A stretch of DNA of 64,000 nt. It comes from Chloroflexota bacterium. GTDB taxonomy: Bacteria; Chloroflexota; Dehalococcoidia; Lucifugimonadales; JACPQL01. Made by a program: the position numbers and the translations under genes. Each line of letters starts with the position of its first letter. Position 1 is the first letter of the stretch. Shown here one piece after another: positions 4,785 to 54,984 of the stretch. The DNA is taken from the NCBI GenBank assembly GCA_016190445.1, contig JACPQL010000049.1, positions 3,710 to 67,709 of the forward strand. The letters are read 5' to 3'. The notes below the pieces were generated by a model, which saw only the letters and a list, made by a program, of their open reading frames with translations, ran no database searches and had not been told where the DNA came from.

Positions 4785-5240
4785 CTATCCCTCCATGCCC
4801 AGGGCCTCGAAGATGCCAAGGAACTGGGAGACATCTCCGGGCTGGTAGTAGGGTATGGAGTGCAGAATGGTCCCATCCTCCCCGATAACAAAGATGGCAC
4901 GACCGGCCCGCTTCAGGTCCTCCCTCATCACGCCGTAGAGTCGTGCCACCGCCAGGTCGGGGTCCGAGGCCAGGGGAAAGGGGAACTCTCCGGCCCTCTC
5001 CTGGAAAGCGCGGTGGGACTCCAGACTATCGGCGCTCACCGCCACCACCTGGGCCCCCAGGCCCTTCAGGGTCTCATGCTCCTCCCGCAGGGAGGAGACC
5101 TCCTGGGTTCAGGTGGGGGTGTTGTCCTCGGTGTAGAAGGCGAGCACCACCCTGCCCTGGGAGAGGAGCCGGCTGAGTGCCATCTCCCCGTGAGTGCTGG
5201 GGAGGGTGAAGTGAGGCGCCTTTTCGCCCTTCTGCGGCAT
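4785..5240 (-). CDS. Bcp/PrxQ-type peroxiredoxin with in-frame UGA (candidate selenocysteine) at the peroxidatic position
   Basis: Track ORFs 5109-5291 and 4785-5048 are in the same frame and are separated by a single TGA (5109-5111). Read-through gives MPQKGEKAPHFTL...GRVVLAFYTEDNTPT-U-TQEVSSLREEHETLKGLGAQVVAVSADS..., matching the FYPxDxTPxC Prx motif. Confidence 0.7.
5070..5100 (-). promoter_or_regulatory. SECIS-like stem-loop downstream of the peroxiredoxin UGA
   Basis: On the mRNA: UGA, 11 nt, then CUCCUCCC-UGC-GGGAGGAG (8-bp stem, plus coordinates 5079-5097). An alternative outer pairing is GGUCUC/GAGACC. Confidence 0.45.
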
Positions 5241-5250
5241 GGGAACGGCC

Positions 5251-8200
5251 CTATCCTCCGGCCTGCGTCCGGCTGGCGGCCAGCAGGGCATCGCGACGGG
5301 CCCTCTGCTGCTCGCGGGGTAGCGGAGGCGCCACGTGCGGCAGGGGCGCCACCTTCTTGAAGCGCGGCAGGTACTCGTCCCACCGGGCCAGGACCTCCCC
5401 CGCCATGGGGCTCTCTGTTAGCTGGTGGTGGCGCTGCACCAGCGAGCGCAGGTTCTCCACATCGTCCGGGTCATCCACAGGGCCAACGCCCACCATCTCC
5501 GGGTTGACGCGCCTCTGGAGCTGTCCGTCCTGGTCCAGCGCGTAGGCCATTCCCCCGGACATACCGGCGCCGAAGTTGCGCCCCGTGGGCCCTAGCACCA
5601 CCACCACTCCGCCGGTCATATACTCGCAGCAATGGTCTCCCGCGCCCTCCACCACCGTCCAGGCACCGGAGTTGCGCACCGCGAACCTCTCCCCTGCCTT
5701 GCCTGCGGCGAAGAGCCTGCCGCCAGTGGCCCCGTAGAGGACAGTGTTACCCATGATGACGCTTTCGTGGGGGAGGAAAGCGGCGTTCTCCGGAGGGCGC
5801 ACCACCACCTCACCGCCGTGCATCCCCTTGCAGACGTAGTCGTTGGCCTCTCCCACCAGCACCAAGCGCATCCCCTCTATGCAGAAGGCACCGAAGCTCT
5901 GGCCTGCGGAGCCCCTGAACCGGAGTTCAATGGAGCCCTCCGGCAGGCCAACGTCCCCGTAGCGGTAGGCGATCTCGCCCGCAATCCGTGCTCCCACCGC
6001 CCGGTGCACGTTGCGTATTCCCCGCTCCGGCACCACCGGGCCCTTGCCCTCCAGGGCTGGCCGTACCAGTGGCATAAGCTCGTCGTCCAGGGGCGGGTCT
6101 ACCGCCTGCCTGCCCCCTGGCTGGACACAGTACCTGGGGCGGTGGCCCTCCGGGTCTACCCGGCGCAGCACCCTGGAGAGGTCCACCGTGGCTGCCTTGG
6201 GGTGGTCTGGCACTGGCACCTGCTCCAGCAGGTCGGGGCGGCCTATGATCTCCTCCAGGGAGCGGGCGCCCATAGAGGCCAGAATCTGCCTCACCTCCTC
6301 TGCGACATAGAAGAGGAACCGGACGACCATCTCTGGCGTTCCCCAGAACTTCTTCCTCAGCTCAGGGTCTTGTGTTGCTACCCCTACGGGGCAGGTGTTC
6401 AGGTGTCACTGCCGTGCTATCTGGCACCCCACGGCCACCATGGCGGCCGTGCCAAAGGCGTACTCCTCTGCGCCCAGGAGGGCCGCCATCACCACGTCCC
6501 GTCCTGTGCGCAGCCCGCCGTCGGTGCTCAGCACCACCCGGCCCCGCAGGTCGTTGAGCACCAGCACCTGCTGGGTCTCAGCCAGCCCCGTCTCCCAGGG
6601 TGCGGCAGCGTTCTTGATGGAGCTGAGGGGTGAGGCCCCGGTGCCACCTTCGTGGCCGCTTATGTGGATGACGTCCGCCTTGGCCTTGGCCACCCCAGCG
6701 GCTATGGTGCCCACGCCCGCCTCAGCCACCAGCTTCACCTGCACCTGAGCCCTGGGGTTCACTGTCTTCAGGTCGTAGATTAGCTGGGCCAGGTCCTCGA
6801 TGCTGTAGATGTCGTGGTGCGGTGCGGGAGATATGAGCGGCACCCCAGGCTGGGTGTGGCGAATGCGGGCGATGATCTCCGTCACCTTGTGGCCTGGGAG
6901 CTGGCCGCCCTCGCCAGGCTTGGAGCCCTGGGCCATCTTGATCTCCAGGACGTCGGCCATGGCCAGGTATTCAGGAGTCACTCCGAAGCGGCCCGACGCC
7001 ACCTGTTTGATTCGGCTGTTGGAGCTATCGGAGCCATTGATACGGGCCCGATAGCGGCGTGGGTCCTCGCCACCCTCGCCGCTGCCACTCTTGCCGCCGA
7101 CCCGGTTGAAACCTATGGCGATGGCCTCGTGGGCCTCCATGCTCAGGGCGCCGAAGGACATGGAGCCGCTCTTGAACCTTTTCACTATCTGACTGGCCGG
7201 CTCCACCTCCTGTAGGGGCACGGGTGGCCCCAGGGGCTTCAGCCGCGTGAGGTGCCGCAGGGCCATGGGGTCCTCGGCCTCCACCTGGCCAACGTACTCC
7301 CTGTATGCATGGCCATCCCCATCTCGCAGGGCCTTGTGCAAGACACGCACCAACTGGGGCGCGAAGGCGTGGAGTTCGCCCCCTCTGCGGAAGCGGTAGT
7401 AGCCGTAGTCTTCCAGCCGCGCGATGCCGTCCTGCCCGACGCCGAAGGCAAGGCGGTGGTGCTCCAGCGCCTCCTGGGCCATCTCCTCAAACCCCAGTCC
7501 TCCCACTGCGGAGGGGGTACCAGTGAAGCACCGCTCAATCACATCGCTGTGGATACCCACCGCCTCGAAGACCTGGGCCCCGTGGTACGCGGTGATGGTG
7601 GATATGCCCATCTTGGACATGATCTTGAGGAGTTGTTTGTCCATGACCTTGCGGTAGGTAGCGACGGCCTTCTCCGGGCCAAGGCCCTCATCGTGCTCTT
7701 CTGTCGCCATCTGGCGCACCGTGGCCACGGCCAGATAAGGATTGATGGCGCTGGCGCCGTAGCCGATGAGGGCCGCCATCTGGTGCATCTCCCGGGCCTC
7801 GCCTGTCTCGGCGATGATGCTGACGGACATGCGCCTCCCCTGGCGAATGAGGTGGTGGTGGAGAGCGCCCACCGCCAGCAGCATGGGAATAGGGGCGTGC
7901 TCGGAGTCCACGCCGCGGTCGCTCACGATGAGGAGGGAGCATCCCTGTGCCACGGCCTCCTCGGCCCGGGCACACAGCTCTTTCAGGGCGGGCTCCAGCG
8001 CCGCAGTGCCGCCCTTTGCCCGGAACAGCGCCGGCAGGGTGGCACACCTGAAAGCGGGGTCCGGGTTGCACAGGATGGCCTCCATCTCGGCATCGCTCAG
8101 GATGGGGCTGGGTAGCCGCAGGAGGTGGGCGTGCTCCGGCGTCTCCTCCAGCAGGCTATGGCGCGGGCCCAGGTAGGTGTACAGGGACATGACGAGTTGC

Positions 8201-9846
8201 TCGCGCAGGGGGTCTATGGCGGGGTTAGTCACCTGGGCGAACCGTTGCTTGAAATAGCTGTACAGAAGGCGAGGCTTCTTGGCCAGCGCCGCCAGCGGCG
8301 TATCATCCCCCAGGGAGCCCACGGGCTCAACCCCCTGGGCGAACATGGGGCCCAACACCATGTGACACTCCTCGCTGGTGTATCCGAAGGCACGCTGTAG
8401 CTGGATGAGAGGGGGCTCCTTCTTCCCCGCGCTGGCGGGGCTTCCCCTGGACTGCGTCCTTCCTGGGGAGGACTGCGTGAGGCCGTCCAGGTGCACCAGA
8501 TGGTGTCGCAGCCACTCTCCATAGGGCCGGCGGTGAGCTACCTGGTCCTTTATCTCCTCGTTCCTCAGCAGCCGTCCCCTGGCAGTATCCACGGCGATCA
8601 TCTGGCCGGGGCCCAACCGCCCCTTCTCCACCACGTGGGCGTCGTCCAGGTCAACGGTACCCACCTCGGAGGCCATGACAATAATGCCGTCGTCGGTAAC
8701 CTTGTACCTGGCGGGGCGCAGGCCGTTGCGGTCCAGGGCCGCGGCCACCGTGACACCGTCGGTGAAGGCCAGGGCAGCGGGGCCGTCCCACGGCTCGGTC
8801 AGGCAGGCGTGGTACTCGTAGAAGTCCCGCCACGCCGGGGCCATGTCCGGCATGTTCTCCCACGCCTCGGGTACCAGCACCATCATGGAGTGCAGCAGGT
8901 CCCGTCCGGAGAGGACCAGGGCCTCCAGCACATTGTCCAGGCTGGCGGAGTCGCTGCCGCCCGGCTGGGAGAGCGGAGGGAGGTGGGCCACCTCCTTCCC
9001 CAGCAGGGCGGAGCGCAGCTCCGGCTCCCGCGCTCGCACCCAGTTCCTGTTCCCCTGGAGGGTGTTGATCTCGCCGTTGTGGGCCAGGAGGCGGAACGGC
9101 TGGGCCAGCACCCAGTTTGGGAAGGTGTTGGTGCTGTAGCGCTGATGGAACAGTGCCAGGGCTGTGGTGAAGTCAGGGCGCTGTAGGTCCAGGTAAAAGT
9201 CCCTGAGATGGGTGGCGGTGAGCAGCGCCTTGTAGACAATGGTGTGGGAGGAGAGAGAGGCAATGTACGCCGCCACTCGGTCCCGGACAAAGCGCGACTC
9301 CGCCTCCTTGCGCGCCAGATAGAGCGAGCGCTGGAAGGCCGCAGCGTCCATGCCCTCGGGCCGCAGCAGTAGCAGGTGGCGGATGGAGGGCAAGGTGGCC
9401 CGGGCGCTCTCCCCCAGCACCGATGGATCAACGGGGACATCCCTCCAGCCCACCACGGGGAGGCCCCGGCGGGCGGCTACCTCTTCAAGGACGTGGCAGC
9501 CGCGGGCAGCCTGCTCGGCGCCAGGGGGCAGGAAGACCACCCCCACCGCCAGGTCGCCGTCGGCGCTCACCCGGTGGCCGTGGCGCTCCGCCTCGGCGGC
9601 GAAGAGGTCAGCGGGTATCTGAGTCAGCACGCCGGCCCCGTCCCCGGTCCTGGCATCGGCGGAGACAGCGCCTCGATGGGTGACGTTGGCCACCGATGTC
9701 AGCGCTTTTTCGAGAATGGCATGGCTCCTGTGGCCTGATATGTCAGCCACAAAGCCCACGCCACAGGCGTCGTGTTCGAACTGAGGGTCGTACAGCGTTC
9801 CGTCATGTGATAAAGGTACCATCGCCGTTGGGTCCTCTCCAAACAC
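5251..9846 (-). CDS. gltB: glutamate synthase large chain, single 1531-codon polypeptide (Fd-GOGAT-like; no gltD adjacent), with in-frame UGA
   Basis: Track ORFs 6406-9846 and 5251-6330 share one frame and are split only by TGA 6406-6408. The product has EHDACGVGFVA (Ntn amidotransferase Cys), FMN-domain blocks and a C-terminal GXGXG domain (GMRLVLVGEANDYVCKGMHGGEVVV). Read-through gives [33 protein letters not shown]. Confidence 0.9.
6378..6394 (-). promoter_or_regulatory. SECIS-like stem-loop downstream of the gltB UGA
   Basis: On the mRNA: UGA, 11 nt (CACCUGAACAC), then CUGCCCC-GUA-GGGGUAG (7 bp including one G-U pair). Confidence 0.4.
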
Positions 9847-9900: not shown

Positions 9901-11247
9901 CTACAGAATAGGGAGGTACCGCTTTAGCTCGTAGTCCGTGACGGCGCTGCGGTACCGGTCCCATTCGATCTTCTTGTTGCGGATGAAGCTGGCGAACACG
10001 TGCTCACCCAGGGCCTTGCGCACCACATCGCTCTGCTCCGCCAGGCTTACGGCCTCGATGAGGCTCCCTGGCAGGGTGCCAATGCCCCTGGCCTGGCGCT
10101 GCTCCTCGCTCATCTCGTACACGTTCTCCTCCACCGGCGAAGGGGGCTCGTACCCTTTCTCGATGCCCTCCAGGCCGGCGGCGAGCATCACGGAGAAGGC
10201 CAGGTATGGGTTGCACGCCGGGTCAGGAGCCCGGTACTCGATGCGCACCGACTCCTCTTTGCCCTGCCTGTAGGCGGGCACCCGAATCAGGTCGGAGCGA
10301 TTGACGCTGGCCCAGGAGATGTACACGGGGGCCTCGTAGCCGGGGATCAGGCGCTTGTAGGAGTTCACCCACTGGTTGGTCACCGCCGTGATCTCAGGAG
10401 CGTGGCGCAGCAGCCCGCCTATGTAGCTCTTGGCCACCTTGGAAAGCTTCCAGGGGTCCTCGGCGTCGAAGAAGGCGTTGCGCCTGTTCTTGAACAGTGA
10501 CTGGTGGACGTGCATGCCGCTGCCATTTATGCCCGCCACTGGCTTGGGCATGAAGCTGGCGTACACCCCATGGCGCTGGGCGACCTCCTTCACCACCAGG
10601 CGATAGGTCATCACCGTGTCCGCCATGGTGAGGGCGTCGGTGTACCGCAGGTCTATCTCATGCTGGCTGGTAGCCACCTCGTGGTGGCTGTACTCCACTG
10701 GGATGCCCATCTCCTCCACAGTGAGCACCGTCTCCCGGCGCAGGTCGGTGGCCATGTCCAGAGGGGTCAGGTCAAAGTAACCCCCCTGGTCCAAGGGCTC
10801 GGTGCTGTTGGGCGTCTTGAAGTAGAAGAACTCCAGCTCCGGGCCCACGTAGAAGGTGTACCCTAGTTTGGCGGCCCGCTCCAGGTTCCGCTTCAACACG
10901 TAGCGGGGGTCCCCCTCAAAGGGGACGCCTGCTGGGGTCAGGACGTCACAGAACATGCGCGCCACGGCGTTCTGGCGAGGCCGCCAGGGGAGGATACGGA
11001 AGGTGGTGGGCTCGGGCATGGCCACCATATCGCTCTCATCTATGCGGGCGAACCCCTCGATGGAGGAGCCATCGAACCCCATCCCCTTCTCCAGCGCCGT
11101 CTCCAGCTCCGCCACCGTGATGGCGAACCCCTTCAAGGAGCCCAGGATGTCGGTGAACCATAGCCGGATGAAACGGACATCGTTTTCCTTGGCCATCCGG
11201 AGGACGTACTCTTTGGCCTCGTCGGGCCTGGCAGTACTGGTGGTCAT
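9901..11247 (-). CDS. glnA: glutamine synthetase type I (448 aa)
   Basis: VRFIRLWFTDILGSLKGF, GFDGSSIEGFARIDESDM, GSGMHVHQSLF, NSYKRL, RIEYRAPDPACNPYL. Confidence 0.95.
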   Translation of the reverse strand: MTTSTARPDEAKEYVLRMAKENDVRFIRLWFTDILGSLKGFAITVAELETALEKGMGFDGSSIEGFARIDESDMVAMPEPTTFRILPWRPRQNAVARMFCDVLTPAGVPFEGDPRYVLKRNLERAAKLGYTFYVGPELEFFYFKTPNSTEPLDQGGYFDLTPLDMATDLRRETVLTVEEMGIPVEYSHHEVATSQHEIDLRYTDALTMADTVMTYRLVVKEVAQRHGVYASFMPKPVAGINGSGMHVHQSLFKNRRNAFFDAEDPWKLSKVAKSYIGGLLRHAPEITAVTNQWVNSYKRLIPGYEAPVYISWASVNRSDLIRVPAYRQGKEESVRIEYRAPDPACNPYLAFSVMLAAGLEGIEKGYEPPSPVEENVYEMSEEQRQARGIGTLPGSLIEAVSLAEQSDVVRKALGEHVFASFIRNKKIEWDRYRSAVTDYELKRYLPIL

Positions 11248-11327
11248 GATGCCGCTCCTCGCTCTCCGTGGCCCACGCGGGGTCTGTCCTCGGCTAGAAG
11301 TTGGTGAGAAAGGCCACGAACCTCGCC

Positions 11328-11357
11328 ATTATACCCAATTTGCTCTGCATGCGTCAA
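11328..11357 (-). promoter_or_regulatory. candidate sigma70-type promoter of the 448-aa glnA
   Basis: Minus strand reads TTGACG (11357-11352), an 18-nt spacer, then TATAAT (11333-11328), about 80 nt upstream of the ATG at 11247. Confidence 0.45.
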
Positions 11358-11502
11358 TGTGCGAAAGCGACGATGGCACCTGCCTCTCTGACCTGTTCTT
11401 GCTGCGGAGGCGCCCAGTGCTGCGATAAGGTGCGCTACGGCTAAACATATGTGCGTCTTCCGTCGTGCGTAATCGAGAAGACGTGCCAGCAGCCAGGAAA
11501 GC

Positions 11503-11542
11503 TGAAAAAGGTAAGGCGCTCCGCAACGCGGAGCGCCTTACC
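11503..11542 (-). terminator. rho-independent terminator of the 488-aa glnA
   Basis: Perfect 15-bp stem GGTAAGGCGCTCCGC-AAC-GCGGAGCGCCTTACC (11510-11542), followed on the minus strand by TTTTTC. It lies 25 nt after the stop at 11567. Confidence 0.8.
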
Positions 11543-11566
11543 TCTAACGGCTCGTGGACCGCGGCC

Positions 11567-13033
11567 CTAGGCGTCCAGGTACAGGAAGAACTCGTAGGGG
11601 TGGGGGCGCAGCCGCACCGCGTCTACCTCGTGCTCCCGCTTGTACTTGATCCACGTCTGAATGACGTCGGGTGTGAAGACATCACCCCGCAGCAGGAACT
11701 CGTGGTCCTCTTCCAGGGCCTGGAGCACCTCTTGCAGGCTGCCGGGGCACTGGACGATCTTGGCCGCCTCCTCGGGTGTGAGGGAGTAGAGGTCCTTGTC
11801 CATGGGCTCACCCGGGTCAATGCGGTTCACAATGCCGTCTATCCCGGCCATGAGCATGGCGGCAAAAGCGAGGTACGGGTTGCAGGAGGGGTCAGGCAGC
11901 CGGTACTCTATCCGCTTGGCCTCAGCGTGTGGGAAGTACACCGGGATGCGGGCACAGGCGCTGCGGTTGCGCACGGAGTAGGCCACGTTTACCGGCGCCT
12001 CGTAGCCTGGCACCAGGCGGCGATAGGAGTTGGTGGTGGGGGCGCAGAAGGCCAGCAGCGCGGGCGTGTGTTTGAGCAGGCCGCCGATGTAGTAGAGGGC
12101 CATCTCGCTGAGCCCTGCGTACCCTTCCGGGTTGTAGAACAGGTTCTCGCCATCCTTCCACAGGCTCTGGTGGGTGTGCATGCCTGTGCCGTTGTCCCCA
12201 AAGAGTGGCTTGGGCATGAAGGTGGCCACTTTGTTGTGGGCCCTGGCCACGTTCTTCAGCACGTACTTGTATGCCATCACCTGGTCGGCCATCTTGGTCA
12301 GGGAGCCATAACGCATGTCTATCTCTCCCTGACCAGCGGTGGCCACCTCGTGGTGGTGTTTCTCAACCTGGATGCCGAAGGCTCCCATCTTCAGGACCGC
12401 CTCGGAGCGGAGGTCAGTTTGAGTGTCCGTGGGGGCGGTGGGGAAGTAGCCCTCCTTGTGCCTGGGCCGGTATGCCAGGTTGTTGTCTTGGCCGTCCCTG
12501 CCCGCGTTCCAGATCCCTTCCTCCGACTCGATGAAGTGGTAGGCGCTCTGGACATTCTGGTCGAAGCGGACGCCATCAAAGATGAAGAACTCCAACTCGG
12601 GGCCCCAGTAGCTGATGTCAGCAATGCCTGAGGACTTCTTGAGGAACGTCTCAGCCTTCTGGGCAATGTGGCGGGGGTCGCGGTTGTACTGCTGCCGGGT
12701 TATGGGGTCAACCACGTTGCACATGAAGCTGATAGTGGAGACTTCAAACACAGGGTCCACCGCCGCCGTGGCCGGGTCCGGCACCACCAGCATGTCGCTC
12801 TCGTCTATCGTCTGGAACCCCCGGATGCTGGAGCCGTCGAAACCCGTGCCCGCAACGAACAGCTTCTCGTCCAACTCGCCTATCGGCATAGTGAAGTGCT
12901 GTAGCGTTCCTGGCAGGTCCACGAACTTCACGTCCACCATCTGGGTCCCTTGCTCCCGGCAGAAGGCTATGATCTCCGCCGGAGTGGTGGGCGGCCTCCC
13001 GTTGTATCTCTCTCTTTTCGGCCTTTGCGCCAT
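11567..13033 (-). CDS. glnA: glutamine synthetase type I (488 aa, second paralogue)
   Basis: VDVKFVDLPGTLQHF, GFDGSSIRGFQTIDESDM, GTGMHTHQSLW, NSYRRLVPGYEAP, RIEYRLPDPSCNPYL. Confidence 0.95.
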   Translation of the reverse strand: MAQRPKRERYNGRPPTTPAEIIAFCREQGTQMVDVKFVDLPGTLQHFTMPIGELDEKLFVAGTGFDGSSIRGFQTIDESDMLVVPDPATAAVDPVFEVSTISFMCNVVDPITRQQYNRDPRHIAQKAETFLKKSSGIADISYWGPELEFFIFDGVRFDQNVQSAYHFIESEEGIWNAGRDGQDNNLAYRPRHKEGYFPTAPTDTQTDLRSEAVLKMGAFGIQVEKHHHEVATAGQGEIDMRYGSLTKMADQVMAYKYVLKNVARAHNKVATFMPKPLFGDNGTGMHTHQSLWKDGENLFYNPEGYAGLSEMALYYIGGLLKHTPALLAFCAPTTNSYRRLVPGYEAPVNVAYSVRNRSACARIPVYFPHAEAKRIEYRLPDPSCNPYLAFAAMLMAGIDGIVNRIDPGEPMDKDLYSLTPEEAAKIVQCPGSLQEVLQALEEDHEFLLRGDVFTPDVIQTWIKYKREHEVDAVRLRPHPYEFFLYLDA

Positions 13034-13098
13034 TCGTTTGCTCCTGTCCTAGAGATGGGGCGAGATTCTGGAGTTGTCCCGTGGAGTAGTCCGCGGGC

Positions 13099-13200
13099 CT
13101 ACTCGGACTTGTCGCGCTTCCGTAGCTTGCTGGGGAGCACCACCCACATGGCGAAGAAACCTGCGAACGCTCCTATTCCCAAGATAGCTTCCAGCGGCAT
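13099..13200 (-). CDS. 33-aa single-TM small protein (unannotated, below ORF-track cutoff)
   Basis: AGGAGGAG, a 7-nt spacer, then ATG at 13200. Product MPLEAILGIGAFAGFFAMWVVLPSKLRKRDKSE: one hydrophobic helix plus a basic tail. Sits between amtB and glnA on the same strand. Confidence 0.5.
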   Translation of the reverse strand: MPLEAILGIGAFAGFFAMWVVLPSKLRKRDKSE

Positions 13201-13240
13201 TGTCGGACTCCTCCTATCGTCGGTATTCTGCCAGTAATGT

Positions 13241-13284
13241 GTTTCCGAAGTTTTGCTCAAATGTTACAAAAGTGTTACACGCTG
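13241..13284 (-). promoter_or_regulatory. four pentamer boxes phased at 11 bp (GlnR-box-like)
   Basis: Plus-strand pentamers GTTTC (13241), TTTGC (13252), GTTAC (13263) and GTTAC (13274). On the coding strand they read GTAAC-n6-GTAAC-n6-GCAAA-n6-GAAAC, 41-84 nt upstream of the small-ORF ATG. Confidence 0.45.
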
Positions 13285-14699
13285 GCCTGCCGCACGCCTG
13301 GCCTGGACCCAGTGTGCGAGCCGTTGGTGGCAGTGTCATAGGCCACGGCGCCATGCTCTGGCAGGTCCAGCCCGCCTAGCTCCTCTTCCCTGCTGGCCCG
13401 CAAGCCCATGGTCTTTTTCAAAGCCCAGAACAGGAGCAGCCCCGCCCCCAACGCCCATGTGGTGACGGCGCCCATGCTGATGAGCTGGGCCAATAACTGC
13501 CCCGTCTCGCCAGCCACCAGACCGCTTACGCCGCCGTAGGTGCCGTCGGCAAAGATGCCCACCGCCAGCAGGCCCCAGAGCCCTGCGCCGGCGTGTACCG
13601 AAACAGCCCCTACGGGGTCATCTATCTTGAGCACGCGCTCCACAAGGGAGAGGCTGCCTATGACCACTAGGGCGGCCACAGCGCCGATGGCTACGGCGGC
13701 CCACGGGGCCACGTAGGCGGCAGGGGCGGTGATGCCCACCAGGCCGCCCAGGGCGCCGTTGCAGGCCATGGCCACGTCGGCCTTCCCTGTGCGGGCCAGG
13801 GTATAGTAGATGGCTACCACGGCTCCTGTTGCCCCGGCCAGCAGAGTGTTGGCCGCGATGACAGCAATGCGCAGGTCAGTGGCCGCCAGGGTGCTGCCCG
13901 CATTGAATCCGAACCAGCCGAAGAAGAGGATAAAGGTGCCTATGACCACATACACCATGTTGTGGCCAGGTATGGCATTGGGTGTGCCATCCAGGTTGAA
14001 CTTGCCAATTCGTGGGCCCACCACCGCGGCGCCAGCCAGTCCCACCAGCCCTCCAACCACGTGAACGACTCCAGAGCCGGCGAAGTCCTTGGCCCCCGCC
14101 CCGAAGGGCAGCGTGGCCAGCCAGCCGCCGCCCCACACCCAGTGGCCGTAGACGGGGTAGATGATGGCCCCCAGGATGAAGCTGTAGGCCAGGTATGCCT
14201 GCACTCGGGTGCGCTCGGCCACGCAGCCTGCCACGATGGTGCAGGCGGTGGCGGCGAACATCATCTGGAACACCCAGTTCATGATGGTGCTCACGTCATA
14301 GGCATCGCCGGTGAGGAAAAAGCCCGAGAAGCCCACGAGCGGGTTCCCCTGGGAGAGTCCCGAGGCCAGGGCCGAGCCGCCGAACATGATGGCGAAGCCA
14401 AAGGCCCAGAAGGACAGTGAGGCGATCATGAAGTCCATGAAGCTCTTGGTCATGTAGTTGACGGTGTTCTTGGCCCGGATGAGCCCTGCCCCCAGGAAGG
14501 CGAACCCCGCCTGCATGATGAACACCAGGAAGCCCGCCATGAGAGTCCAGGCGAAGTTGACCGCCGCGTTGGGGTCCTCTGTGAGGGTGTCCCCTCCAGC
14601 GGGGTCTGCCCCGTTGGCCCAGGCCACCCCGAAGCTGGCCAAGAATATGGTCAGCCCCAAAAACACCACCGCGACCACTCTGGTCCTTTGTGAAAGCAT
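13275..14699 (-). CDS. amtB: ammonium transporter
   Basis: Amt signature region FAWTLMAGFLVFIMQAGFAFLGAGLIRAKNTVN, DFAGSGVVHVVGG, and multi-TM throughout. Start trimmed to ATG 14699 (GGAGG, 6 nt, ATG). Confidence 0.95.
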   Translation of the reverse strand: MLSQRTRVVAVVFLGLTIFLASFGVAWANGADPAGGDTLTEDPNAAVNFAWTLMAGFLVFIMQAGFAFLGAGLIRAKNTVNYMTKSFMDFMIASLSFWAFGFAIMFGGSALASGLSQGNPLVGFSGFFLTGDAYDVSTIMNWVFQMMFAATACTIVAGCVAERTRVQAYLAYSFILGAIIYPVYGHWVWGGGWLATLPFGAGAKDFAGSGVVHVVGGLVGLAGAAVVGPRIGKFNLDGTPNAIPGHNMVYVVIGTFILFFGWFGFNAGSTLAATDLRIAVIAANTLLAGATGAVVAIYYTLARTGKADVAMACNGALGGLVGITAPAAYVAPWAAVAIGAVAALVVIGSLSLVERVLKIDDPVGAVSVHAGAGLWGLLAVGIFADGTYGGVSGLVAGETGQLLAQLISMGAVTTWALGAGLLLFWALKKTMGLRASREEELGGLDLPEHGAVAYDTATNGSHTGSRPGVRQASV

Positions 14700-14753
14700 C
14701 GGTCGCCTCCCCAGCGGAGTTTGTGAAACCTGACACAACCTTAGCTGGGGGTT

Positions 14754-17381: not shown

Positions 17382-17431
17382 GGTTTTGTGACCATTGAAA
17401 CACGCTCCACTGTGGAGGAGAAAGAAGCCGG

Positions 17432-17767
17432 ATGATAACAGTAACGGCTCTGGCTGCCGAGAAGCTGAAGGGCGTGCTGGACGAGCAAGGGAAGCCTGGT
17501 AGCGCGCTTCGTATCATTGTCATGCCTGGCGACCACGGACTCCAGTATATGCTGACCCTGGAGGAGTCGCCCAGAGAGGACGACCTGGTGCTGGGCCAGG
17601 ATGGTGTCCAGATTGTGGTGGACTCGGACAGCGCCCCTCTGCTGGAGGGCGCTGAGCTAGACTACTCCGAGGAGTTGATGCGGAGCGGCTTTGTTATCAC
17701 CAACCCCAATGCCCCTGTCGGCGGGTGCGCATGTGGCGGTGGTGGGTGTGGCTGTAGGGGGGAATAA
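17432..17767 (+). CDS. HesB/IscA-family Fe-S cluster assembly accessory protein
   Basis: MITVTALAAEKLKGVLDEQG...LRIIV..GDHGLQYML...QIVVDSDSAPLLEGAELDY...GFVITNPNA, with a Cys-rich C-terminus (GGCACGGGGCGC). Confidence 0.8.
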   Translation: MITVTALAAEKLKGVLDEQGKPGSALRIIVMPGDHGLQYMLTLEESPREDDLVLGQDGVQIVVDSDSAPLLEGAELDYSEELMRSGFVITNPNAPVGGCACGGGGCGCRGE

Positions 17768-22815: not shown

Positions 22816-23157
22816 GGGCTGCTCCTTTTAAGGCCTGGCTCCCAGCGACGAGGGGCACAGCGACCAGGCCCAGATAGCGCCGGAATCTAGTGAAAGTATA
22901 GCACACGCCGCTTCACCTGGGCGTCGTGGGAGTGACGGACCCCTCACTCGACCTGAGCAAAAGGGAGACCAGGACTGCTGATGACGAATTTCGATGCCCC
23001 AATACAAGACGCGCTGGCTTGGCGACGGCCCAGGGCTTTTGAGAATGATTTCACAAGCACAAAGCCTTGACAGGCGGCGTGAAAGTTGCCACACTTTACA
23101 CCATCTGTTGCCCGGGCGGGAGCTGAGGACTAGCGCCCCCTGGGGAGGAGGTCTGAG

Positions 23158-24944
23158 ATGCGACGGTTCTGTACCCCCAGGCGGCTGATGGTTGTAGCGC
23201 CTCTGCTGTTGCTCCTGGCGCTGGCGGTGGGCGCCTGCGCCGGGGCTGAGCCCACGGCCACGCCAACGGCCACACCCACACCACGGCCAGCGGCCACGGC
23301 TACCCCAACGCCCACTCTCGTGCCTGGCGCGGCGACGCCCACACCCACCATCAGGGTGGTGCTGGTGGCCACGCCAACGCCGACACCTACAGCCCCGCCG
23401 GTGGCCGTCAAGCCCAGTGGGACGCTGAAGTACGCCATGGATGCCATTCCCAGCACCTTCACGGTGGACCAGATTGAGGGGACCGCCGCCGCCCGCATAT
23501 ACATGGGCGGCCTGCTCTATGAGTTCCTCATTGGCACCGACCTCCAGGGCCAGTTGGTGCCTGAGCTGGCCACCAAGTGGGAGACCACGGATGGCAAGAC
23601 CTGGGACTTCACCATCCGCAAGGGTGTCACCTTCTCCAACGGCAAGGAGATGACCGCAAACGACGTCAAGGCCAGCATGGACATCATACTGAAGTACGGC
23701 AAGACCAGTGCGCCGAAGAACCTGGTGCGCCAGGTTGACCGCGTGGAGGTGCCGAACGCGGACACAGTGCGGATCGTGACCAAGGAGCCCAACTTCCTCT
23801 TCTACTTCGACATGGCCAAGGCCTCCTACAGGAACTACTGGGTCACATCCGCCGACTACTTCAACCAGGTAGGGGAGGCCAAGCTCCGGTCGGAGCCCAT
23901 GGGCACCGGCCCCTACGTGCTGACGGAGAAGGTCTCGGGCGACCACGTCACATTCCGAGTCCGCGACGACGTGGTCAAGAGCGGCCACTGGCGAGTCAAG
24001 CCTGTCTACTGGGAGCAGGTCCAGGCCTACAAGGTCCAGGAGGAGTCCACCCGCATCGCCATGCTCAAGACAGGCCGGCTGGACCTCATTGACATCGCCC
24101 TTGCCCTCAAGACCAACTGGCAGGCTGGCCCCTGGTCCGCAACGAGGCCGTCACCGCTGGCTCCATCGGCATGTGCTGCATCGGCACTGCCCCCTCCCTC
24201 TTCAACGACATCAAGGTCCGCAAGGCCCTCAACCTGGCCGCCGACATGGACACCATCGCCAAGACCATCTTCAAGGACGAGATTGTCCGCCAGGCCGTCT
24301 TCAACTACACCAAGGACGTCTGGGGGTTTGACCCAAGCCTCAAGCCCTATCCCTACGACCCAACTGAGGCCCAGCGCTTGGCCAAGGAGGCGGGCTTCCC
24401 ACCCCCAGGCTACAAGATGACCATGTACCTGCGGACCGACGCCATCGGCATCCCGGACATCGTGGCGGCGGGTGAGGCCGTGGGCACCTACTGGAAGCGC
24501 AACCTCGGGGTGGACGTAAACTACCAGCTCATAGAGCAGGCCCGTCTGGACCCCCTGCTCACCCTCGTGGAGCCCCCCGACAAGTTCCAGGCTGCGGGTA
24601 TCTGGAACAACACGTGGACGCCGCGCTCCAGCGTGGTGCCCGACCCCGGCCAGGCCTTCAACGCCACTATGGGGTGCAAGCAGATCTTCAATGCCAGCCA
24701 CTCCTCCCGCGCCACCTGCTCCGAGGTGGACGACTGGATGCTGGAGTACTTCAAGACGGCAGACCCCAAGGCCCGTGACGCCCTGTCCCTCAAGATCCAG
24801 AAGTGGTACCACGAGAACTACATCCCTGTGCCTCTAGGGGCGGCCAACCAGATCTTCGCTCTTGGGCCCAAGGTGGGGGCCTACCACCCGCACCCTGGCT
24901 TCCCCTACGCGGAGTACATCGAGTACGTGGAGCCCAAGAGGTAG
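23158..24944 (+). pseudogene. ABC-transporter substrate-binding lipoprotein (family 5, peptide/nickel type) interrupted by a -1 frameshift
   Basis: Track ORF 23158-24420 is SBP-like up to ...DLIDIALALKTNWQAGP and then becomes P/S/R-rich. The SBP sequence continues in another frame (LVRNEAVTAGSIGMCCIGTAPSLFNDIKVRKA..., track ORF 24171-24944). The switch point is a C4 run at 24129-24132. Lipobox LAVGAC followed by a Thr/Pro linker. Confidence 0.65.
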
Positions 24945-25215: not shown

Positions 25216-25273
25216 TTCATCACCTTGCGCTCGGATGGCGCGGGATATGTGTTATTGCTGACGGAGGTGTCGG

Positions 25274-26938
25274 ATGAGACGGTTCTCTACCCCCAGGCGG
25301 CTACTGATTGTAGCGCCCCTTCTGTTGCTCCTGGCGCTGGCGGTGGGCGCCTGCGCTGGCGCCGAGCCCACGGCCACTCCCACGCCGACGCCAACCAAGG
25401 CTCCAGCGGTGGTGGCCACGCCCACACCGACGGCTACACCCACTCCCACCGGGCCCAAGACCGGCGGTGTGCTCAAGATGAGCTGGCGAACCGGCACCGA
25501 CGTTGTGGGCCTGGACCCGCTGAAGACGGCTGGTGGCACTGACCGGGGCTGGATTTTCGCCATGTGCGACACCATCTACGCCTTCGACAAGCAGATGAAG
25601 TACGATCCGGCCAACTCCCTGGCCGAGTCCTTTGATATTAGCGCCGACGGCAAGACCTACACCTTCCGCCTGCGCGAGGCCAAGTTCCCGGACGGCCGCG
25701 TGATGACCGCCGACGACGTGGTCAAGAACTTCCAGCGGTACAAGGACCCCGCCAACAAGTTCCGCTACGCGGATACGTTGGCGGCTATTGAGACCTATAC
25801 TGCGGTAGACGCCCGCACCCTGAAAGTAGTCACCAAGCAGCCGGAGGCCTCCTTCATCACCAACCTGGCGGAGCGGGGCGGCTGTGTCCAGCAGCCAGAG
25901 AAGTGGGCGGAGAAGGGGGACAAGTACATTGGCGAGCCCACCATGATAGGCGCCTTCCAGGGCTCCAACTGGCAGCCCGATGTGGGCTGGAAGATGACCA
26001 AGTCCGCCAACTACTACCAGCAGGGCCGCCCCTATCTGGATGCCATTGACATGCGGATAGTGCAGGAGACCAGGGTGCGCCTGGCGGCTGTGCAGACCGG
26101 GGAGTTGCACGGCGCGTACCTTGAGGGCGAGATGATCCCCATGTCGCTGAAGGACACGAACCTCAACACGGTGAAGTTCGTGGGTGAGTCCTTCTCAGGC
26201 TACCTGTTCAACGTCACGAAGCCTCCTATGGACAACATCAACCTGCGGAAGGCCATCATCGCGGCCCTGGACCGGGATGCACTCACCCAGTTCTGGGAGG
26301 GTCTGTACGACCCACCCAAGGGCCACGGTCTCATCGGGCCCTCCATCCCCTGGGCCTATTTCGACATGTCGGACGTGGACATACCCTACAGCGAGGCCAA
26401 GGCAAGGGAGTACCTCCAGAAGTCGGGCCTGACCCTGCCCGTCAAGCTGGACGGCGGGTCAGCCTCCTCCACCCTGGAGGCACAGCACAACGAGCTGATC
26501 CAGGGCTACCTGAAGAAGGTGGGCATCGAATGGAGCTTTGTCACGGGCAAGACGGCAGACATGAACCCCAGGCAGTACGGCTTTGCGCCCAACCCCAGCG
26601 AGTTCCACTTCAACGGTATGGCTGCCATCGTGCTGCGGGTTGACCCTGAGGCGTGGCTGCGGGTCGCGCTGTACCCCGAAGCGTTCTACAACCCTTCCAA
26701 GAAGCTGCCCGACGGGGTGCTGGAGCTCTTCCAGAAGGCGGCCACCACCTTTGACGTGAACGAACGGGCCCGGCTGTATAAGGAGGCCCAGCGTATCCTG
26801 ATGGACCAGGCGTGGGCGCGGTTCCCGTATGGCTATCGGAATGCCTTCGCCACTTTCAGGCTGAATATTGGGGGCACGGAGAACTTCTGGGGTGGTGACG
26901 GCCAGTGGCGGCTCAAGAACCTTTGGCTGAAGGGCTAG
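25274..26938 (+). CDS. ABC-transporter substrate-binding lipoprotein (family 5, peptide/nickel type)
   Basis: 554 aa. The signal peptide and lipobox are almost identical to those of the upstream paralogue (MRRFSTPRRLLIVAPLLLLLALAVGACAG), followed by a Thr/Pro linker and an SBP_bac_5-like body. Confidence 0.9.
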   Translation: MRRFSTPRRLLIVAPLLLLLALAVGACAGAEPTATPTPTPTKAPAVVATPTPTATPTPTGPKTGGVLKMSWRTGTDVVGLDPLKTAGGTDRGWIFAMCDTIYAFDKQMKYDPANSLAESFDISADGKTYTFRLREAKFPDGRVMTADDVVKNFQRYKDPANKFRYADTLAAIETYTAVDARTLKVVTKQPEASFITNLAERGGCVQQPEKWAEKGDKYIGEPTMIGAFQGSNWQPDVGWKMTKSANYYQQGRPYLDAIDMRIVQETRVRLAAVQTGELHGAYLEGEMIPMSLKDTNLNTVKFVGESFSGYLFNVTKPPMDNINLRKAIIAALDRDALTQFWEGLYDPPKGHGLIGPSIPWAYFDMSDVDIPYSEAKAREYLQKSGLTLPVKLDGGSASSTLEAQHNELIQGYLKKVGIEWSFVTGKTADMNPRQYGFAPNPSEFHFNGMAAIVLRVDPEAWLRVALYPEAFYNPSKKLPDGVLELFQKAATTFDVNERARLYKEAQRILMDQAWARFPYGYRNAFATFRLNIGGTENFWGGDGQWRLKNLWLKG

Positions 26939-54229: not shown

Positions 54230-54880
54230 TCACTTGATCAGCCCCCTCTCCACAGCGACTCGGACCGCCTCAGTCCTGCTCCCAGCCCCCAGTTTGGACA
54301 TGATACTGGCGACGTGGCTCTCGACGGTCTTTGCTGAGATCGAAAGGTGCTGGGCTATCTCCATGTTTCGGAGCCCCTGTGACATCAGTTCGACCACGTC
54401 AATCTCCCGCAAAGTGAGTTCGTCCGGCTGCGAGCGCCCGATGGCCGGGCGCTCTTGGGAGTAGCTACGTATTACCTTGGATGCTATCGGGGACGGCAGT
54501 ACGGCTCCGCCCTCCGCAACCTCGCGGACGGCTTGCACCAGTGTCTCCTGCGGCGCGTCTTTCAGGAGATACCCGTCAATCCCAAGCCTGACGGCCGCCC
54601 TTACATACTGGTCGAAGTCGTATCCCGTAAGCACGAGAAGTTTCAGGTGCGGGTGTTGCTGGCGCAGCAAGCGAACCAGCTCGAGCCCTGACATCCCGCG
54701 CAATCGGATATCCACAATCGCAACCGACGGCTGCACTTGTGCCAGCAGCCCGAGAGCCTCCTCTGCCGAAGCTGCCTCTCCCACCACCAGGATGTCAGAC
54801 TCCTGCTCCAAGCGGTTCCGTATGCCCTCGCGGAACATGCGCTGGTCTTCGACAATGAGGACTTTGATAGGCAGCTTCAC
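54230..54880 (-). CDS. NarL/LuxR-family response regulator (ComA-like position in the cassette)
   Basis: KVLIVEDQRMFREGI, AIVDIRLRGMSG, LTLREIDVVELMSQGLRNMEIAQHLSISAKTVESHV. GTG start, 216 aa. Confidence 0.9.
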   Translation of the reverse strand: MKLPIKVLIVEDQRMFREGIRNRLEQESDILVVGEAASAEEALGLLAQVQPSVAIVDIRLRGMSGLELVRLLRQQHPHLKLLVLTGYDFDQYVRAAVRLGIDGYLLKDAPQETLVQAVREVAEGGAVLPSPIASKVIRSYSQERPAIGRSQPDELTLREIDVVELMSQGLRNMEIAQHLSISAKTVESHVASIMSKLGAGSRTEAVRVAVERGLIK

Positions 54881-54984
54881 CAGGCGCCCTTTCTACCTGT
54901 CGCGTGCACTAGTACTTGCTTTCTGAAGTCAGCGTTATCATGCGCAAGCCTTCTCCCTCACGCTCGCGCCTCATTCGCCCAATG

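Follow-up and report, generated by a model that had tools for sequence, protein, structure and literature searches.

In E. coli fdhF, the selenocysteine insertion sequence (SECIS) has a bulged U in its upper stem, and this feature and the sequence of the loop are recognised by the E. coli SelB protein. The minimal E. coli element is a 17-nt upper stem-loop that is required to lie 11 nt from the UGA (PMC11431864). A broader consensus for bacterial elements (bSECIS) allows a loop of 3-9 nt and an upper stem of 4-16 bp, with a G within the first two bases of the loop (as a rule G and then G or U), a distance of 16-37 nt between UGA and loop and a minimum free energy of -7.5 kcal/mol or lower (PMC13188914). 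The subject of this report is a UGA codon followed by a hairpin of this kind in gltB, the gene for the large subunit of a glutamate synthase of the Fd-GOGAT type, on a 64-kb stretch of DNA (the window) from a metagenome-assembled genome (MAG) of a Chloroflexota bacterium. The UGA takes the place of the middle cysteine codon of the [3Fe-4S] cluster motif. It is very probably a site of programmed, hairpin-associated recoding, and we put the probability that the residue inserted is selenocysteine (Sec), which would make gltB a selenoprotein gene, at roughly three in four. Sec had been proposed for this codon in a preliminary description of the window, and homologues with TGA at the same place, a hairpin conserved along with it and purifying selection on the sequence that follows now support the proposal.

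The interrupted gene, its hairpin and their recurrence

The gene occupies positions 5251..9846 of the minus strand and is complete when the UGA is read through. Its frame (9846..5251) runs for 1531 codons, and the sole internal stop is the TGA at 6408..6406. The longest open reading frame (ORF) begins at GTG 9846, the start annotated by NCBI is ATG 9822 and the terminal stop is TAG 5253..5251. Gene callers and NCBI split gltB into two ORFs; a stop at the UGA would leave a product of 1146 aa, and the NCBI record for the N-terminal part, MBI2873112.1, has 1138 aa and ends at the TGA. Homologues of the protein are about 1500-1540 aa long. The domains are GATase_2, Glu_syn_central, Glu_synthase, which binds FMN, and GXGXG, the Pfam matches having been recorded for an identical N-terminal part (P0001) and for the C-terminal part on an identical contig (L097). 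The HDACGVGF motif, with the N-terminal catalytic Cys, lies close to the N-terminus. Close homologues are named ferredoxin-dependent by JGI, and no gltD gene adjoins gltB in the window.

In an alignment with Azospirillum brasilense GltB (PDB 1ea0_A) the TGA falls on Cys1108 and the flanking cysteines on Cys1102 and Cys1113. The C-x5-C-x4-C spacing and the residues around it are kept, the middle position being the UGA. Binda et al. are said to have identified, in 2000, the three cysteines of this motif as the [3Fe-4S] ligands of glutamate synthase. Past the UGA comes a spacer of 11 nt, CACCUGAACAC (6405..6395, minus strand), which comprises the codons for His-Leu-Asn and 2 nt of a Thr codon, and then the 17-nt hairpin CUGCCCC-GUA-GGGGUAG (6394..6378, minus strand). 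The hairpin encodes Thr-Cys-Pro-Val-Gly-Val-(Ala) and so includes the third cluster ligand. Folded, it has a stem of 7 bp, one of them G.U, and a loop of 3 nt, at -10.1 kcal/mol, with a z-score of -3.9 against dinucleotide shuffles of the 17-mer.

The preliminary description had read the two ORFs as one gltB split in a single frame by the TGA at 6406-6408, had placed that TGA at the second Cys of the motif and had seen the hairpin exactly 11 nt beyond it, as in fdhF. The 1531-codon translation, the alignment to 1ea0_A and the position of the hairpin bear this out, and the placement agrees with the geometry rule for E. coli (PMC11431864). Both the size of the hairpin (17 nt) and its position (an 11-nt spacer) are those of the minimal E. 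coli element, and it lies within the bSECIS consensus, with a 3-nt loop (GUA or GUU, hence beginning G-U), a 7-bp stem, 18 nt from UGA to loop and a free energy of -10.1 kcal/mol. At the level of sequence the likeness ends: a perfect, unbulged stem of 7 bp carries a GUA or GUU triloop, so that the bulged U and the loop of the E. coli type are absent. By analogy, the gltB element may work as the E. coli SECIS does, yet it would not be a sequence-level member of that type.

The background for comparison was a set of 68 distant homologues from GTDB species representatives, all at most 58% identical to the window protein and including no close relative or TGA form. The middle-Cys codon is TGC in 46 of them and TGT in the other 22, and of 141 fetched proteins 137 have Cys in the motif. 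A metagenome scan with a nucleotide pattern in which TGA was fixed at the middle Cys (GGN TGY N9 MGN NNN TGA CAY NNN RAY NNN TGY CCN NNN GG) recovered eight contigs with TGA at this codon. Five of the eight (L082, L083, L085, L086 and L087) belong to the GltB subfamily of the window, and their frames are open on both sides of the TGA as far as the contigs reach; in L082 the open frame has 1287 codons before the TGA and 390 after it. The N-terminal part, used as the query of a protein search, added P0122 and P0124, which end ...ARQ, and the contigs concerned, L089 and L090, have TGA at that point and frames likewise open on both sides. In total there are the window and seven further hairpin-bearing TGA sequences of gltB, drawn from six or more datasets in addition to the MAG. 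The orthologue alignment called for in the preliminary description as a check for Cys/Sec pairs thus gives Cys in every distant homologue and TGA in seven further gltB genes.

The eight TGA forms fall into four lineages: the window; L082; L083, L085, L086, L087 and L090; and L089. In the region flanking the motif, identity between a lineage and the Cys forms closest to it is 74-78%, and between one TGA lineage and another it does not exceed about 71%. A neighbour-joining tree of 138 sequences places the four lineages apart from one another, with Cys forms as the sisters of each. A protein named Chloroflexota belongs to the L083 cluster, and the sister cluster of L082 includes proteins, from MAGs, named Thermodesulfobacteriota.

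All eight forms have the hairpin CUGCCCC-GUW-GGGGUAG exactly 11 nt past the TGA, with an identical stem and a stability of -10.1 kcal/mol. At the same site the 68 Cys forms average -3.7 kcal/mol; the best of them is at -7.7 and none reaches -10.1. The length of the spacer is set by the protein motif, and its synonymous sites differ among lineages (CTG/CTC, AAC/AAT, CAC/CAT). Among the degenerate codons for invariant residues, 23 of 114 (20%) are identical in all four lineages, as against five of five in the stem (ACC, TGC, CCC, GGG and GTA). Variation resumes around the stem, at the third base of the loop codon (A/T) and just after the stem (GCA/GCC/GCG, ACA/ACG, CAA/CAG). In the Cys forms GGG is used at its stem position in 9 of 68 and GTA in 2 of 68, GTA accounting for 7% of the Val codons of the window, and under a null model of synonymous codons drawn with the codon usage of the window itself a hairpin this stable has P = 0.004. 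These synonymous sites indicate that the gltB hairpin is selected and is not a mere by-product of the protein motif.

The nearest Cys sister of the window gene (L091:6001-10536, ENA ERZ26167216) has TGT at the middle-Cys codon and, at the same position, the hairpin CUGCCCCGUAGGGGUGG, of -8.8 kcal/mol; in three other Cys sisters the site ranges from -1.1 to -6.3 kcal/mol. The near-intact hairpin of L091 looks like the relic of a SECIS or a precursor to one. The pattern fits a recent interconversion of Sec and Cys in the lineage of the window, followed by decay of the hairpin.

Beyond the TGA the gene appears to remain under constraint. Within the L083 cluster the ratio of non-synonymous to synonymous substitution rates (dN/dS) is 0.09-0.28 after the TGA, at dS of 0.06-0.35, and somewhat lower, 0.02-0.12, upstream of it. 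As judged from these ratios, the sequence past the TGA is under purifying selection and is translated in frame. The first in-frame start codon (ATG 6330) lies 25 codons past the TGA and beyond the third ligand Cys, and the segment HLNTCPVG, which precedes any in-frame start, is conserved as protein with variation at its synonymous sites. Because of the dN/dS values and this conserved segment ahead of the start, a pseudogene and re-initiation in a split gene are both disfavoured; these were the alternatives that the preliminary description had named for the orthologues, and the intact frames also speak against a pseudogene. The sequence itself is reproducible. Three other runs (SRR12113390, SRR12113385 and SRR12113401) have Logan assemblies that match the window with 100% identity, the matches being 5725, 5213 and 1325 nt long. 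The 5725-nt match (L097) spans the gltB TGA and the TGA of the neighbouring gene described below; the former is covered by one of the three assemblies and the latter by all three.

The adjoining peroxiredoxin and other neighbours

The strongest local support for Sec is a gene that the preliminary description did not include. A peroxiredoxin gene of the Bcp/PrxQ type (prx; 5240..4785, minus strand; ATG 5240..5238, stop TAG 4787..4785) starts 10 nt downstream of gltB and is probably co-transcribed with it. It too has an in-frame UGA (5111..5109, minus strand), which stands at the peroxidatic Cys in the sequence NTPT-U-TQE, a TxxU motif, within the context ...VVLAFYTEDNTPT-*-TQEVSSL.... An AhpC-TSA domain match spans this TGA with E = 5e-33, and NCBI gives the gene as a truncated product of 101 aa, MBI2873109.1. 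Among the 120 prx homologues listed, 87 match the motif pattern and all 87 have Cys at the TGA column; with the gene's own C-terminal fragment set aside, the 119 best-scoring relatives are Cys forms.

Here also a hairpin begins 11 nt past the UGA. It is 19 nt long, CUCCUCCC-UGC-GGGAGGAG (5097..5079, minus strand), with an 8-bp stem, the triloop UGC and a free energy of -13.5 kcal/mol (z = -3.4; P = 0.010 under the synonymous-codon null). Like the gltB hairpin it lies within the bSECIS consensus: the loop has 3 nt with G as its second base, the stem 8 bp, the distance from UGA to loop is 19 nt and the free energy is the -13.5 kcal/mol just given. Peroxiredoxins of this group (COG1225 Bcp, TxxU) are a known selenoprotein family (PMC9312934), and the AhpC/TSA fold, the UGA within TxxU and the downstream hairpin that mark Sec-peroxiredoxins are all present in prx. 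By its sequence, prx is a probable second selenoprotein gene. Because a gene of a known Sec family, adjoining gltB, carries a UGA and a hairpin of like build, the organism is likely to decode Sec, and prx is the best evidence here that suggests so.

Upstream, gltB lies within a nitrogen-assimilation cluster (amt, glnA, glnA, gltB), the other members of which fill positions 9901-14738 on the same minus strand. One glnA gene (9901..11250) is directly upstream of gltB, and a second glnA (11567..13033) and amt (13275..14738), both on the minus strand, complete the nitrogen-assimilation context. A glnA gene also directly precedes gltB in L090, L091, L092 and L094, in Sec-form and Cys-form relatives alike.

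Elsewhere in the window a gene for a family-5 solute-binding protein (23134-24944, plus strand) appears frameshifted, either as a pseudogene or through an assembly indel. One ORF (23134-24420) corresponds to the N-terminal half of the nikA/opp profiles, and an overlapping ORF in another frame (24093-24944) corresponds to the C-terminal part of SBP_bac_5, and farther on, at 25262-26938, there is a paralogue that is intact.

Readings of the UGA

The predictions of Sec insertion that were examined here, namely Sec/Cys pairing, recurrence, the hairpin, selection, ordinary TGA stops and reproducibility, all came out positive. Several observations nevertheless weigh against a Sec-containing GltB. 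A search of the 64-kb window and of the flanks fetched for the other TGA-form loci, with NCBIfam on about 50 ORFs from the window and 10 from the other loci and with ARAGORN for tRNA(Sec), gave no selA, selB, selD or tRNA(Sec) gene. A natural [3Fe-4S] cluster with Sec among its ligands is not known to us from any characterised protein. Most close relatives of the gene use Cys, and the best protein matches, which reach 72% identity, are Cys forms of full length. The hairpin comes in part free with the codons for Cys-Pro-Val-Gly, the Cys forms often having a version of 5-6 bp, and its stem is invariant, so that there is no covariation and the structural evidence consists of synonymous-site conservation only. 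An Rfam scan of the gltB and prx sites gave no SECIS or other RNA family, at gathering thresholds or at E <= 10, so that the covariance-model check advised in the preliminary description did not support the element; nor did inspection reveal a lower stem or longer conserved structure around the gltB hairpin. The whole 49-nt stretch at gltB is not unusually stable against shuffles (z = -0.41), and the consensus is permissive: in this window of 64% GC a loose bSECIS-like hairpin follows 47 of the 1602 TGA trinucleotides. Because of these last two results, the significance of the element rests on the comparative data and not on any single fold. Finally, the three remaining contigs of the pattern scan, L081, L084 and L088, which belong to other gltB subfamilies, have TGA at the same codon and no hairpin. 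Two of these, L084 and L088, are 84% identical over 62 aa; the three could be Sec forms that rely on a different SECIS, or else pseudogenes or errors.

Two candidates for Sec-related genes were set aside. An AIRS-domain gene beside a rhodanese gene in L091 has the look of selD and is purM. An IscA/HesB gene of the window (17399..17767, plus strand) gives a weak NCBIfam match to a HesB-like selenoprotein and is of the Cys type (…GGCACGGGGCGCRGE), with TAA as its stop codon. As to the wider group, tRNA(Sec) is known in Chloroflexi (PMC5389517).

The main rival to Sec is cysteine. An opal-suppressor tRNA(Cys) of the selC* type, working with a SelB paralogue, could insert Cys in a SECIS-dependent manner, and GltB would then stay Cys-ligated. 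Systems of tRNA(Cys), SelB* and CysRS* with selC* have been described in Deltaproteobacteria and other phyla (PMC5389517). The nearest relatives of L082 include MAGs of Thermodesulfobacteriota, and a UGA at a Cys position, a hairpin and downstream translation fit Cys equally well at the level of DNA. Against this, the selC* systems so described were found in genomes with a full Sec apparatus, in which Sec insertion would still be expected (PMC5389517), the neighbouring TxxU peroxiredoxin is from a family known with Sec, and no selC* or selB* was seen in the window. We regard Cys insertion as unlikely.

A second rival dispenses with any dedicated factor: a weak UGA-C might be read through at a low rate by a near-cognate tRNA (for Trp, Cys or Arg), the hairpin merely slowing termination. 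Termination at UGA-C is generally held to be weak, the next codon here always begins with C (CAC or CAT) and TGA is a minority stop in the window (9 of 42 genes). Such leakage would nevertheless leave most of a central enzyme truncated and inactive, and Trp or Arg is implausible at an invariant cluster ligand. The geometry, moreover, follows the rules for SelB-type elements and recurs in the adjoining gene of a known selenoprotein family. Factor-independent read-through is quite improbable here.

The two ORFs annotated by gene callers and NCBI might also be a genuine split gene, with termination at the UGA, re-initiation at ATG 6330 to make the C-terminal GXGXG part, and assembly of the two halves. 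Domain-split glutamate synthases exist in archaea. In gltB, however, the break falls inside the C-x5-C-x4-C motif, away from any domain border, the 25 codons that separate the UGA from that start hold the third ligand Cys and are conserved in the manner of coding sequence, and there is no conserved start codon or ribosome-binding site past the UGA. A split gene is very unlikely. A sequencing or assembly error, or a recent nonsense mutation in a single MAG, could be argued from the nature of the source, the frameshifted gene at 23134..24944, the prevalence of Cys among relatives and the chance that the hairpin-less TGA contigs L081, L084 and L088 are errors of just this kind, and is scarcely credible given an identical sequence in assemblies of three other runs, recurrence of TGA, with intact frames, across four divergent lineages drawn from at least six datasets, dN/dS well below 1 downstream and a hairpin that is conserved with the codon.

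Reassignment of TGA throughout the genome was rejected, TGA being the terminator of at least five well-supported window genes and internal in only two, gltB and prx. It is the true stop of sdhC, of jag/eloR, of a HAD phosphatase gene and of a response regulator gene (54230..54892), where the family profiles end within a few residues of it, and a histidine kinase gene in the window also ends at TGA, some 25 residues past the end of the profile. The preliminary description had cited sdhC among ordinary TGA stops in arguing for site-specific recoding and not a changed code, and in this it was right. Gene calling in the window was based on GC3; a scan for in-frame stops was uninformative, with many spurious antisense ORFs in such GC-rich DNA. 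The stop codons of the 42 family-supported ORFs are TAG in 26, TGA in 9 and TAA in 7, despite the 64% GC, and a tendency to TAG is also seen in L083, L086 and L089.

Mechanism, significance and comparison with known systems

If Sec is indeed the residue inserted, the 17-nt hairpin would bind SelB carrying Sec-tRNA(Sec) while the UGA at 6408..6406 is in the A site, and SelB would insert Sec in competition with release factor 2 (RF2). The ribosome would then melt the hairpin, reading it as the Thr-Cys-Pro-Val-Gly-Val codons, and would read 384 more codons to yield an Fd-GOGAT-type enzyme of about 1530 aa. In that enzyme a selenolate would take the place of the middle thiolate, the equivalent of Cys1108, in the [3Fe-4S] cluster that feeds electrons to the flavin. 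The UGA of prx would be decoded likewise, at the peroxidatic residue. The selenolate might tune the potential of the cluster or help it to resist oxidative damage; this is speculation, and the putative Sec-peroxiredoxin, probably co-transcribed, hints at the latter. All that concerns SelB and tRNA(Sec) as decoders, the identity of the residue, its ligation of the cluster and any tuning of redox behaviour or robustness is predicted from sequence. The motif seems to be pre-adapted to this use, because the cluster motif's own codons make up the SECIS and a few synonymous choices (CCC, GGG, GUA) are enough to form it. Such ease of formation could account for the scatter of Sec forms, whether Sec was gained repeatedly or is an old state that is easily retained and has been lost many times.

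Sec-containing GltB would probably be a new selenoprotein family that uses a known bacterial mechanism of recoding. No Sec-containing GltB was found in full-text literature searches, which agrees with the preliminary description; supplementary tables and subscription papers were outside the scope of these searches, and a prior listing is possible. The word 'glutamate' is absent from the text of a 2022 review, its family table included (PMC9312934), from the main text of a 2026 review and of the BSepDB paper, and from the deep-Sep paper and a 2022 preprint on eight new families. HdrL of Desulfobacterium, an 'HdrA/glutamate synthase fusion', was considered as a precedent and rejected, the domain in question being like the small subunit and not GltB. 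On balance we favour the view that glutamate synthase is an unrecognised selenoenzyme, with Sec ligating its [3Fe-4S] cluster, in several lineages of environmental bacteria, in Chloroflexota and possibly in a second phylum related to Thermodesulfobacteriota.

Were this so, a core enzyme of ammonium assimilation would enter the selenoproteome, most known bacterial selenoproteins being redox or thiol enzymes or formate dehydrogenases, and nitrogen assimilation would be tied to the supply of selenium in some bacteria of groundwater and soil. The cluster would be the first natural selenolate-ligated 3Fe-4S centre known to us, and the two forms of the enzyme would provide a natural Sec/Cys pair for studying the effect of a selenolate on a [3Fe-4S] cluster. 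The case of gltB also suggests that a protein motif can hold its own SECIS within its codons, and that such genes are mis-annotated publicly as truncated or split proteins, of which MBI2873112.1 and MBI2873109.1 would be examples.

With E. coli fdhF and other bacterial selenoprotein genes, gltB shares a UGA at a catalytic or metal-binding Cys and a hairpin within the ORF directly downstream. It differs from fdhF in that its element is without the bulged U and without an extended lower stem, and in that the host gene encodes a glutamate synthase and not a molybdopterin enzyme. The Cys-type GltB and Fd-GOGAT enzymes of known structure (A. brasilense 1ea0/2vdc and Synechocystis 1ofd/1llw) have the same four domains, the HDACGVGF motif and C-x5-C-x4-C with its flanks, and the motif region of the window protein matches these structures with E-values of 7.5e-56 to 4e-54. 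Here the middle ligand is encoded by UGA instead of UGC or UGU, and the codons around the third ligand are fixed in a set that forms the hairpin.

The neighbouring prx resembles the Sec-peroxiredoxins (COG1225 Bcp, TxxU; PrxU of Eubacterium acidaminophilum) in its UGA at the peroxidatic Cys, in the sequence T-P-T-U and in the downstream hairpin; it is unlike them in that its relatives, among those listed, are Cys forms and in its position directly behind another putative selenoprotein gene, at 10 nt. Other selenoproteins with Sec at cluster-associated Cys positions have been found computationally, through Sec/Cys pairs and bSECIS elements (PMC9312934, PMC12013277), and differ in that none is a glutamate synthase or concerns a 3Fe-4S site. 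The closest parallels in coordination chemistry are the [NiFeSe] hydrogenases (Ni) and the formate dehydrogenases (Mo or W), where Sec likewise replaces a metal-coordinating Cys and Sec and Cys forms coexist among relatives. In those enzymes the partner of the selenolate is catalytic Ni, Mo or W, whereas in gltB it is predicted to be the iron of a [3Fe-4S] electron-transfer cluster.

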